Below, one piece after another: positions 11,645-13,548 of a stretch of 33,942 nt of DNA. A program made the translations under genes and the position numbers. Source of the stretch: an uncultured Candidatus Saccharibacteria bacterium (GTDB lineage: Bacteria; Patescibacteriota; UBA1384; XYA2-FULL-43-10; 1-14-0-10-43-13); assembly GCA_964363695.1 (NCBI GenBank), contig CAYIJI010000001.1:1-33942 (forward strand), read 5' to 3'. The notes below the pieces were generated by a model that was not told the origin of the DNA, made no database searches, and was given only the letters and a program-made list of their open reading frames with translations. The number at the start of each line of letters is the position of its first letter. Position 1 is the first letter of the stretch.

Positions 11645-11728
11645 GCGGGTGTGGTGAAATGGTATACACGCCAGTCTTAGGAACTGGTGCCGCAAGGCGT
11701 GGAGGTTCGAGTCCTCTCACCCGCACCA
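11645..11728 (+). tRNA. tRNA-Leu (anticodon TAG), CCA encoded
   Basis: Acceptor gcgggtg/cacccgc. Anticodon arm ccagt-cttagga-actgg. Long variable arm gccgcaaggc. T arm ggagg-ttcgagt-cctct. Confidence 0.9.
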
Positions 11729-11735
11729 AGAAAAA

Positions 11736-11891
11736 ATGATGAATAAACATAAAGATCAAAAAAACTATGAGCTGGATGAAATTGAGGAGAAGCTGATTAA
11801 GGAAGATGAAGAAAAGAGGAAGCTCCAGATGCCGGTGGCTGGGAGAAGCGTTTTTGAGATCAAAAGAATAAAAAATACGAAGAAAAAATAG
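11736..11891 (+). CDS. Possible 51-aa charged small protein (below the ORF-track cutoff)
   Basis: My own translation: MMNKHKDQKNYELDEIEEKLIKEDEEKRKLQMPVAGRSVFEIKRIKNTKKK. No homology recognised and no clear RBS. Confidence 0.25.
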   Translation: MMNKHKDQKNYELDEIEEKLIKEDEEKRKLQMPVAGRSVFEIKRIKNTKKK

Positions 11892-12020: not shown

Positions 12021-12049
12021 TTGACAAATCGTTTAAAATAGTGTATGGT
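12021..12049 (+). promoter_or_regulatory. Sigma70-type promoter driving the riboswitch-like leader
   Basis: TTGACA (12021-12026), a 17-nt spacer, then TATGGT (12044-12049). Confidence 0.55.
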
Positions 12050-12056
12050 TAAAGCA

Positions 12057-12189
12057 ACAAAGTCGAAGATCGACAAAGGCAAACCAGTCGAAAGGCTGGG
12101 ACGCAAAACTATAGGGCCTTCTTGAGAAATCAAGGGTGGCAGCCAGTTGCCGAAACTTCAAATGAGCTCGGGGTTGAACTTCGTCTTTG
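12057..12189 (+). promoter_or_regulatory. Candidate c-di-GMP-I (GEMM-I) riboswitch
   Basis: The core at 12073-12153 reads ACAAAGGCAAACC-AGUC-GAAA-GGCUGGGACGCAAAAC...CUUGA-GAAA-UCAAG...GGCAGCCAGUUGCCGAA. It matches the conserved GEMM-I blocks as remembered from the Vc2 aptamer (GGCAAACC, a GAAA-capped hairpin, GGGACGCAAAG, AGC.GGGUUACCGA). GGCAA (12078-12082) can pair with UUGCC (12147-12151). Confidence 0.65.
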
Positions 12190-12217
12190 TAATACACTCC
12201 TTTAGGGGGATATTGCA

Positions 12218-12691
12218 ATGAAGAGTCGTATTATTAAAAATCAGTTTCTGGAGCGCGCATTCCGCACACATGTGAGGGTTTCGGAAGATATATTCGGCAG
12301 AGGCCGGATAAATATTCTGAAGCTGCTAGAACAAGAATTTCTTGCTAAGACAGAATCAGAAAACATTATTGAGGTGCAAGAAATTCCTGTTCTAAGGAAT
12401 GGGCATACAATGAAGTGGATACTCGGAGATCACAAGGAAGGCGAAGAAATTTGCCTGACGTGCGATCAGTGCGGATGGGTAAGTTTACCCATTCACATAT
12501 TTAAAGAGTATTTCCACTATTCCTCGTTTAGGGCCAACCTTCCAGAAGATGAGCGGGCACTTATGTCTGCTCGTATGCACTTGACGGAAGTGATGGGAGG
12601 CAAAGTAAGAAGTTATTGTCCACACTGTAAGAAACATTTAATTGCAGTGTTGGACACAAGGAAAGAAGAACGCCAGCCCGAACAGGGCTAG
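12218..12691 (+). CDS. Hypothetical zinc-ribbon protein (CxxCxxC ... CxxC)
   Basis: 157 aa, with AGGGGGA as RBS. Cys clusters are CLTCDQCG and CPHCKKH. No family recognised. Confidence 0.6.
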   Translation: MKSRIIKNQFLERAFRTHVRVSEDIFGRGRINILKLLEQEFLAKTESENIIEVQEIPVLRNGHTMKWILGDHKEGEEICLTCDQCGWVSLPIHIFKEYFHYSSFRANLPEDERALMSARMHLTEVMGGKVRSYCPHCKKHLIAVLDTRKEERQPEQG

Positions 12692-12705
12692 GCGCAAAAG
12701 ATCAG

Positions 12706-12737
12706 AAAGGACCGGCGAATATCGCGGTCCTTTTCTC
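12706..12737 (+). terminator. Intrinsic terminator between convergent genes
   Basis: aaaggaccg...cggtccttt stem followed by ttttctc. Confidence 0.6.
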
Positions 12738-12750
12738 TTGCGTAAAAAAG

Positions 12751-13548
12751 CTATTTTGCAGTAACGGTTCCGTCTTCCTGATTGATTTCATACTGGAATC
12801 CAAAAGGATCTGGCGGGATAGCTTTTAAGATTCGGGCGGATACAAGATCGTTTAGATCGGAAGGATACTTTTTGTTTACCCCATAGTATTGTTTTGAGGC
12901 TTCTTCCAACAAATCCATTATTTCGAGATGGACTAGATAATTTTTCGCTCTTTCTTTCACTATCTCGTCGTTAGTCGTTTCATAAATTCCACTCCAGATT
13001 TGTTTGGTTTGCTCTCTTTTGTCTTTTTTCGAACCATATCTGGCAGAGACTTTTTTAATCCCATCCGGAACGCCTGGCGTGTTGGCGGCGACATCAAAAT
13101 ATTTGGCGGCATTGACCGGATCATTTTTATTTATATGATATGTTACGGCGAGATAGTAGGGAATCTTCCAATCCGGTTTTGAATCGGCAATACCCTTCTT
13201 GGCCAATTCTATGCCTTGATCTGGGTAGCCGATGCTTGGCAAAATCAATGCTCCGAATGCGTAAGGGTAGGCAAATTTGGGGTCGAGATCAGATGTTAAG
13301 AACAAGTAGCTGGGAAGTTCTTTGTAGGTTTTACTCTCGCCTCCGCCAAAATATTGAATAGCGGAAAGCCAAGTAAAATCTGCCGCCGCATTATTTAGCC
13401 CGAGATCGGCGGCTTTAACTATTTCCGGTTTTAGGACGAGAGGTTCTTTGAATTGAGCCTTTTTTTTCTCAGTGTCATAAAAATACTGAACGGAAATAAT
13501 TCCGCCTAGGCATATTAAAAGTAGAATGGCAGTGAAATATTTTTTCAT
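12751..13548 (-). CDS. Hypothetical exported or membrane-anchored protein, helical-repeat (TPR-like) appearance
   Basis: N-terminal hydrophobic segment MKKYFTAILLLICLGGIISV. The body is repetitive and helical (PYYLAVTYHINKNDPVNAAKYFDVAA). It is last in the ABC gene string. Confidence 0.55.
   Translation of the reverse strand: MKKYFTAILLLICLGGIISVQYFYDTEKKKAQFKEPLVLKPEIVKAADLGLNNAAADFTWLSAIQYFGGGESKTYKELPSYLFLTSDLDPKFAYPYAFGALILPSIGYPDQGIELAKKGIADSKPDWKIPYYLAVTYHINKNDPVNAAKYFDVAANTPGVPDGIKKVSARYGSKKDKREQTKQIWSGIYETTNDEIVKERAKNYLVHLEIMDLLEEASKQYYGVNKKYPSDLNDLVSARILKAIPPDPFGFQYEINQEDGTVTAK

Follow-up and report, generated by a model that had tools for sequence, protein, structure and literature searches.

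A c-di-GMP-I riboswitch predicted to control a zinc-ribbon-like protein gene in a Patescibacteria genome with no detected c-di-GMP enzymes

[quoted passage not shown] The locus that raises this question is in the window (the whole stretch of DNA analysed here, 33,942 nucleotides), which is contig 1 of the assembly of an uncultured Candidatus Saccharibacteria bacterium (GCA_964363695.1). The assembly comprises 920,153 bases in 66 contigs with 39% G+C and is estimated to be 89.8% complete and 0.42% contaminated; the genomes of the order (n=44) are all 0.5-1.5 Mb in size. c-di-GMP riboswitches are usually read as sensors of a self-made signal. The reading that we favor for this locus, and consider quite likely as a whole, is that 12021-12739 form a unit under translational OFF control whose ligand comes from outside the cell or from an unrecognised enzyme. 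(Below, G, L and P numbers denote genomes, loci and proteins.)

The aptamer occupies 12068..12155 on the + strand in the combined RF01051 and RF03167 alignments. An earlier note on this DNA, made by eye, had placed the GEMM-I sequence blocks in order within 12073-12153, and every block that it listed is present: by direct reading GGCAAACC begins at 12078, GACGCAAA is 12100-12107, and AGCCAGUUGCCGAA ends at 12154. The check that it proposed, a search with the c-di-GMP-I model RF01051, was run over the whole genome with this single family and gives a full-length match (1-87) at 12068-12154 (+) with 72.9 bits, above the gathering score of 35. By this score the aptamer is a predicted GEMM-I (c-di-GMP-I) riboswitch, the match being far beyond chance, and per se it is nothing out of the ordinary for this well-known class. 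Helix P1 (12070-12072 with 12151-12153) has only 3 bp, P2 is the hairpin CCAGUC-GAAA-GGCUGG (12084-12099, with its GAAA loop at 12090-12093), and P3 spans approximately 12110-12146, where the apex of the second hairpin is CUUGAGAAAUCAAG (all +). In Vc2 the bases that contact c-di-GMP are G20, A47 and C92 (PMC4744006, PMC5888326), and the cmscan alignments place G12078, A12105 and C12150, respectively, at these positions. G12078 is the unpaired G that precedes the GC of GGCAAAC, A12105 is the base that follows GACGC, and C12150 is the unpaired C that precedes the P1 3′ strand. With a full-length GEMM-I member that carries the canonical G20/A47/C92 pocket, c-di-GMP is the ligand to be expected. 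The CUAAG/UAUG tetraloop receptor found in L005 and L008 is absent from the window P3, and the GAAA loop on P2 is present. GEMM-I members that have no tetraloop receptor are known. Since P1 has only 3 bp and P3 no such receptor, the affinity of the window aptamer may differ from that of Vc2.

When all Rfam families are searched with cmscan, the family displayed is c-di-GMP-I-GGC (RF03167), with a full-length match at 12069-12155 (+) of 70.9 bits (cut-off 59, E 4.7e-15), since the cmscan table keeps one clan member and picks it by E-value. Could the window therefore be a GGC variant with an altered pocket, and perhaps with a ligand other than c-di-GMP? Such a reading would account for the win of RF03167 in the clan competition and for a P3 that is like that of the RF03167 model, with its tetraloop receptor missing, but it is very improbable, as the base that distinguishes the two families is the canonical A, not G, and the RF01051 bit score is the higher one. 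The two consensus lines differ at a single pocket position (GACGCGAA in RF03167, GACGCAAA in RF01051), at which the window has A; in the RF03167 alignment the consensus GACGCGAA stands against GACGCAAA in the window, and the match line is blank at the differing column. The GGC assignment was rejected because A12105 lies where the RF03167 consensus has G. From the two consensus lines we infer that “GGC” refers to positions 20, 47 and 92, and the GGC label of the window is read as a reflection of its P3 shape and not of an altered pocket, as its P3 is without the CUAAG/UAUG receptor.

The earlier note had left the choice between c-di-GMP and cGAMP open, and at the level of sequence the answer is the c-di-GMP type. 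An A at position 20 marks the cGAMP-type GEMM-Ib. The GEMM-Ib fold is identical to that of the window aptamer, and some related leaders (L008, L009 and L014) do have A at position 20, so a GEMM-Ib-type riboswitch for 3′3′-cGAMP was weighed; it was rejected, and is the most improbable of the readings considered here, because position 20 of the window is G (G12078), and the genome searches turned up neither a GGDEF nor a SMODS-type cyclase. The A20 aptamers are those at L008:110-197 (G004), in L009 (G001 contig 2) and in L014 (G013 contig 29), in genomes in which no GGDEF was found. Aptamers with C at this position are present at L012:1501-1595 (G001), L138:1226-1319 and L140:573-678 (ACCGCAAAC, AAACGCAAAC), and these three leaders belong to a two-domain zinc-ribbon subfamily. 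A C here could form a Watson-Crick pair with guanine, and we know of no described natural C20 class of GEMM-I. With A in one of the orthologous leaders (L008) and C in three (L012, L138 and L140), the specificity of the family could be relaxed or shifted.

The gene immediately downstream (12218..12691, +) encodes a 157-aa protein with a C-terminal Cys4 zinc-ribbon-like domain. The earlier description of it as an uncharacterised zinc-ribbon protein agrees with the open reading frame and with its invariant cysteines C82, C85, C134 and C137; a helical insert of about 48 residues splits the Cys4 domain, and some family members carry an extra N-terminal CxxC...CxxC ribbon. No Pfam or NCBIfam model scores above its cut-off with the window protein (Zn_ribbon_3 reaches 16.1 bits against 27), and its G001 orthologue reaches 16.6 bits with DZR, below the cut-off of 27.3. 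As the Cys4 pattern is invariant, yet the profile scores stay under their cut-offs, “zinc ribbon-like” describes the predicted 157-aa protein and is not a family assignment. The family is small: a profile search of 1.84 billion representatives returned only nine proteins, one of them spurious. P0008 (1614 aa), an Rhs/FG-GAP repeat protein with a spurious profile match, was rejected as a relative. A PDB sequence search with the window protein gave no match, and Foldseek with its AlphaFold model gave no usable match (best E 0.23); the model itself is poor, with a mean pLDDT of 56.6 and values of 65-80 in the C-terminal domain. A contig-level genome scan with the window protein gave one weak unrelated match only. 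Among the family members preceded by an aptamer, identity to the window protein is as low as 21-24%. The first ~55 residues (12218-12390) are unrelated to those of P0002 and P0003, two proteins that are 85-88% identical to it over the C-terminal 68% only, and they resemble the distant members L085, P0004 and P0005; this N-terminal segment seems, from the sequence comparison, to have been exchanged. The next gene (12751-13548, -) is convergent and encodes a 265-aa protein with no Pfam or NCBIfam match.

Is the juxtaposition of aptamer and gene peculiar to this genome? The DNA around every family member, L085 and L070 included, was scanned for the aptamer, and a c-di-GMP-I aptamer lies directly upstream of the family gene in the window and in L026, L028, L085, L012/L070, L008, L134, L135, L137, L138 and L140; that of L134 is cut by the contig end, and that of L135 precedes two tandem paralogues. 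L136, whose contig breaks off shortly before a paralogue, stands outside the count. Thus, the aptamer precedes the zinc-ribbon gene in every locus that has enough upstream sequence. The zinc-ribbon gene is followed by the convergent ~265-aa gene and then by an ABC-2 permease gene, and the 265-aa neighbor is present in most of the related loci. In other families of the class aptamers precede small Cys-rich proteins (in G145, G109, G100, G137, G071 and G061). The retained synteny, together with these aptamers before Cys-rich proteins in other families, indicates that the RNA-gene pairing is old and maintained, and the zinc-ribbon proteins would constitute a new riboswitch-controlled family, a narrow and dedicated target.

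The boundaries of the unit can be drawn on both sides. The promoter that had been proposed just upstream of the aptamer is a sigma-70-type promoter at 12021..12049 (+) with TTGACA at 12021-12026, a 17-nt spacer and TATGGT at 12044-12049 (10/12 matches), and it predicts a transcript start at about 12056-12058. An extended promoter block, TTGACAAAT-N5-AAAATAGTGTAT, is common to five orthologous leaders from three genera (the window, L026, L028, L012 and L008); it is also present in L085, and near-matches occur in L137, L138 and L140. The block occurs once in the genome. When metagenome contigs were scanned with the promoter pattern, 102 stretches were obtained, 80 of them as loci, and the leader was present in only two loci. 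The pattern AATAGTGTAT(A/G)nT has six occurrences in the genome (window 12021-12049 and five others), in promoter-like settings, and may be a lineage-specific extended -10 element. Between a tRNA (11645-11725) and the riboswitch promoter lies a 51-codon Lys/Glu-rich open reading frame (11736-11891, +), whose sequence also precedes the leader in L026 and L028. At the other end, direct reading finds a terminator-like hairpin, GGACCGGCG...CGCGGUCC followed by UUUUCUCUU, at 12709..12739 (+), which a terminator scan of the + strand did not flag. This hairpin, between the convergent genes, is the predicted end of a monocistronic transcript. Window 12021-12739 would then be a self-contained unit of promoter, c-di-GMP-I riboswitch, zinc-ribbon gene and terminator.

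How might ligand binding reach the gene? The terminator scan of the + strand found no convincing intrinsic terminator in the interval between aptamer and gene. Its sole match there, at 12169-12183, was rejected as a terminator: the stem is weak and rich in G-U pairs, and the U tract is poor. Given an interval with no terminator, control is probably translational. Two structures lie in this leader in addition to the aptamer. The first is a long-range helix, here called P0, whose 5′ strand CAAAGUCGAAG (caaagtcgaag, 12058..12068, +) is at the extreme 5′ end of the predicted transcript and whose 3′ strand CUUCGUCUUUG (cttcgtctttg, 12179..12189, +) abuts the second structure, overlapping it by 2 nt. 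Both arms of this flanking helix and its 10 of 11 pairs are as the earlier note had given them, except that the 5′ arm lies at 12058-12068 and not one base to the left at 12057-12067; its suggestion that the helix could form an expression platform gains from the conservation of the helix in relatives with compensatory changes. With its extension the window P0 has a predicted energy of -17.8 kcal/mol, reached by 1 of 300 dinucleotide shuffles. All nine leaders compared have a P0 duplex, with energies of -9.4 to -17.8 kcal/mol that 0-17% of dinucleotide shuffles reach, and it is kept through compensating sequence changes (CAAAGCUGA/UCAGCUUUG in G001 and UUCAGAAG/CUUCUGAA in G004). The second structure is a hairpin of ~30 nt, UGUAAUACACUCC-UUUA-GGGGGAUAUUGCA (12188..12217, +), that sequesters the Shine-Dalgarno sequence AGGGGGA (12204-12210, +) and stops one base short of the AUG. 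Its predicted energy is -10.8 kcal/mol, and none of 300 shuffles is as stable; across the nine leaders its stability ranges from -7.8 to -10.8 kcal/mol, 92.5% of cells are paired (38-67% in slid controls), and three pairs in the alignment are changed on both sides. An aptamer nested in a long-range helix that in turn abuts a Shine-Dalgarno hairpin is an unusual arrangement.

Between the aptamer and this hairpin lies a switching segment (12151..12183, +), delimited by direct reading and by the free and P1-enforced folds, in which both strands of P1 have alternative partners, so that the aptamer sits in a 5′ UTR with a platform that competes for P1. An “anti-P1” hairpin is possible in which CGAA of the P1 3′ strand pairs with UUCG (12180-12183) and UUCAA (12157-12161) pairs with UUGAA (12174-12178); the corresponding CCGAA:UUCGG pairing recurs in relatives of the terminator type. 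ACUUC is present twice (12155-12159 and 12178-12182), and the two copies compete for GAAG at 12065-12068, which pairs either with CUUC at 12156-12159 (a “long P1”) or within P0. A single anti-Shine-Dalgarno/anti-anti-Shine-Dalgarno pair was also considered and was dropped, since L028 and G001 have no such pairing, although in some other leaders G-rich linker segments could pair with the anti-Shine-Dalgarno strand.

In the mechanism that we propose, the P1 3′ strand would pair with the downstream UUCG when ligand is absent, and P0 would form. With ligand bound, P1 would be locked, and GAAG (12065-12068) could take the proximal CUUC (12156-12159) as its partner; the P0 3′ strand, freed thereby, would extend the Shine-Dalgarno hairpin across the start codon and lower expression. 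On this model the window switch is probably turned OFF by c-di-GMP. The Shine-Dalgarno hairpin forms in both modelled states, so the switch does not work by simple on/off pairing. When P1 is enforced, the region from the Shine-Dalgarno sequence to the AUG becomes costlier to open in eight of nine leaders, by 0.7-4.6 kcal/mol, and cheaper in none, as the released P0 3′ strand lengthens the hairpin over the start codon. Measured against shuffled coding starts, this effect stands out in only four of the nine leaders, and the window leader is not among them (27 of 40 shuffles reach its value). As a stand-alone duplex, the P0 3′ strand paired with the first codons did no better than shuffles, and this idea was rejected; modelling of the whole leader gives a consistent but small effect. 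Leaders of the terminator type in the zinc-ribbon family speak to the same question. In the free folds of G007, L135 and G100 the P1 3′ strand is the antiterminator, pairing with CUUCGG inside the terminator, and withholding that strand lets the terminator form; as modelled, these leaders have the build of OFF switches. In two leaders of secreted-protein genes (G001 C2 and G013 C29), the P1 3′ strand is the 5′ half of the terminator, which in the models is the build of an ON switch.

The opposite sign, in which c-di-GMP would turn the zinc-ribbon gene ON (for example, if a long P1 dissolved P0 and its stacking), draws on three features: P0 and the Shine-Dalgarno hairpin share 2 nt with no linker between them, the second riboswitch of the genome resembles an ON switch, and the modelled OFF effect for the window leader falls within shuffle noise. 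It is nevertheless the less plausible direction and in our estimate somewhat unlikely, as enforcement of P1 eases opening in no leader and as those leaders of the zinc-ribbon family that have a terminator show the OFF-switch build. The second riboswitch just referred to is on contig 7 of the same genome (G000, 20470-20561, -; locus L002) and has 60.6 bits. It precedes a gene for a signal-peptide protein of >438 aa with sub-threshold Ig-like matches (Invasin_D3, Big_1), and by eye a terminator stem with seven U after it takes in the P1 3′ strand; judged on this reading, the riboswitch has the build of an ON switch, here for a secreted Ig-like protein. With the zinc-ribbon gene read as OFF-controlled, the two riboswitch outputs of the genome would respond in opposite directions. 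Tandem arrangements also occur among relatives: two c-di-GMP-I aptamers precede one gene for a secreted pectate-lyase-like beta-helix protein in L005/L013 (G038 contig 32, 5887-6139), and G091 contig 107 has another tandem pair.

Where the ligand would come from is the larger part of the question. The earlier note had asked for a check of the genome for GGDEF, EAL, HD-GYP and CD-NTase genes. In the ~90% complete assembly no GGDEF, EAL, PilZ, HD_5 (HD-GYP) or SMODS (CD-NTase) domain was found; an unfiltered six-frame hmmsearch of the genome with a profile built from the GGDEF domains of relatives found no GGDEF, a regular expression for the MshEN c-di-GMP-binding motif found nothing in it, and no c-di-GMP-II riboswitch was found there. 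With 66 contigs and 89.8% completeness, the absence of a cyclase from this one genome is not proven, and the argument is the pattern across relatives. Among the 44 genomes of the order, six have the riboswitch, seven have GGDEF and none has both. In a sample of 151 genomes drawn evenly from the class, the riboswitch is present in 16 and GGDEF in 40; only two (G091 and G155) have both, so that 14 of the 16 riboswitch-bearing genomes have no GGDEF. Of all 18 riboswitch-bearing genomes searched, 16 have none. The GGDEF-less carriers include genomes rated 96-100% complete (G001, G004, G007, G054, G061, G078 and G109). Neither EAL nor HD_5 above its cut-off was found in any riboswitch-bearing genome. 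Aptamers of 58-87 bits with their pocket bases kept occur across at least six families of the class, and those of the 14 GGDEF-less genomes of the sample mostly reach 58-86 bits and also keep these bases. The pattern of riboswitches in genomes with no GGDEF is hard to explain by missing contigs and, as far as sequence can tell, argues against decay of the sensors.

In the two genomes of the class sample that have both, the riboswitch lies immediately upstream of the GGDEF gene (L151 on G091 contig 3 and L148 on G155 contig 11), which suggests feedback on the cyclase itself. EAL is present in only six of the 40 GGDEF-bearing genomes of that sample, always as a GGDEF-EAL fusion, and HD_5 exceeds its cut-off in only three of the 151; to judge from these domain searches, most GGDEF-bearing Patescibacteria in the sample show no known c-di-GMP phosphodiesterase.

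Three explanations of this pattern have to be weighed. Under one the cell makes its own c-di-GMP, with a cyclase encoded in the unassembled 10% or belonging to a family missed by both the GGDEF and the SMODS profiles. The state of the assembly (89.8% complete, 66 contigs), the GGDEF genes of other class members (40/151) and the SMODS domain of G004 (36.5 bits) all leave room for it, but 16 of 18 riboswitch-bearing genomes are without GGDEF, some of them 96-100% complete, so that loss from all of them by chance is very unlikely, and EAL, or HD_5 above its cut-off, is in none of them; we regard a self-made signal as a minority prospect. Under another, c-di-GMP signalling has been lost from the lineage, and the aptamer is either a remnant of it or a structured leader that does not depend on a ligand, as might be thought where no known synthesis, degradation or protein receptor is detected. 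This is quite improbable: aptamers in at least six families of the class score 58-87 bits and keep their pocket bases, the P1 3′ strand has likewise retained its alternative partners, and continued selection for switching would be expected to leave just such a pattern.

The remaining explanation looks outside the cell. As no cyclase, phosphodiesterase or PilZ domain was found here, and most riboswitch-bearing relatives have no GGDEF, the ligand would come either from an unrecognised enzyme or from outside, in the simplest case from the host cell on which an episymbiont lives; uptake from outside, an unrecognised synthase and a different natural ligand are the sources that remain. According to one preprint, all cultivated Patescibacteria are obligate episymbionts (bioRxiv 10.1101/2024.11.25.624915). 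That Patescibacteria with no detected c-di-GMP enzymes keep high-scoring c-di-GMP-I riboswitches to read the c-di-GMP of host bacteria, to which they attach and on which they feed, is a tentative idea, to which we give roughly one chance in three. If it is true, contact with the host or the state of the host would turn surface or secreted proteins on and small zinc-ribbon proteins off, a case of interspecies eavesdropping by riboswitch. Full-text searches of one literature library returned no paper in which c-di-GMP riboswitches are connected with Patescibacteria, CPR bacteria or episymbionts.

The unit at 12021-12739 is thus unusual in three ways, namely the nested platform, the narrow zinc-ribbon target family and the lack of detectable c-di-GMP enzymes here, with no GGDEF in most of the class genomes that bear the riboswitch, and it is the context with no detectable cyclases that lifts the finding above an ordinary riboswitch annotation. 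A lineage appears to keep intact sensors wired to a conserved gene set with no detected enzyme to make or break their signal. If that holds, either the episymbiont receives a second messenger from its host as a cue or a c-di-GMP synthase of an unknown kind is encoded in a 1-Mb genome, which for the latter case is a small search space; either would be a first molecular handle on host sensing by ultra-small bacteria.

Among known systems the nearest in structure is Vc2 of Vibrio cholerae (RF01051; PDB 3IRW), which shares with the window the three-helix aptamer, the GAAA loop on P2, the GGCAAAC and GACGCAAA blocks and G20/A47/C92 (PMC4744006, PMC5888326). Unlike Vc2, the window aptamer has a P1 of 3 bp and a P3 with no canonical tetraloop receptor, is nested in a long-range helix, and is carried by a genome in which no c-di-GMP enzymes were found. 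With the RF03167 variant it shares a similar P3 shape and a score that passes the gathering score, but it has A where that consensus has G (GACGCGAA). In the arrangement of sensor and signal, the closest precedent is that of the Clostridioides difficile prophages, whose c-di-GMP-I riboswitches (Sudarsan et al. 2008, as cited in PMC5473149) are carried by a genome that has no synthase of its own and reads the pool of another cell. Here, unlike the prophage, the carrier is cellular and has its own cytoplasm, so the ligand would need import. The c-di-GMP regulon of C. difficile (PMC6200980) includes several riboswitches of opposite sign, with surface or secreted proteins switched on. The genome that contains the window likewise has one signal and riboswitches of opposite predicted sign, although C. 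difficile has many cyclases and phosphodiesterases and none was found here. The OFF target in C. difficile is the flagellar genes, whereas the predicted OFF-type target in the window is a zinc-ribbon-like protein.
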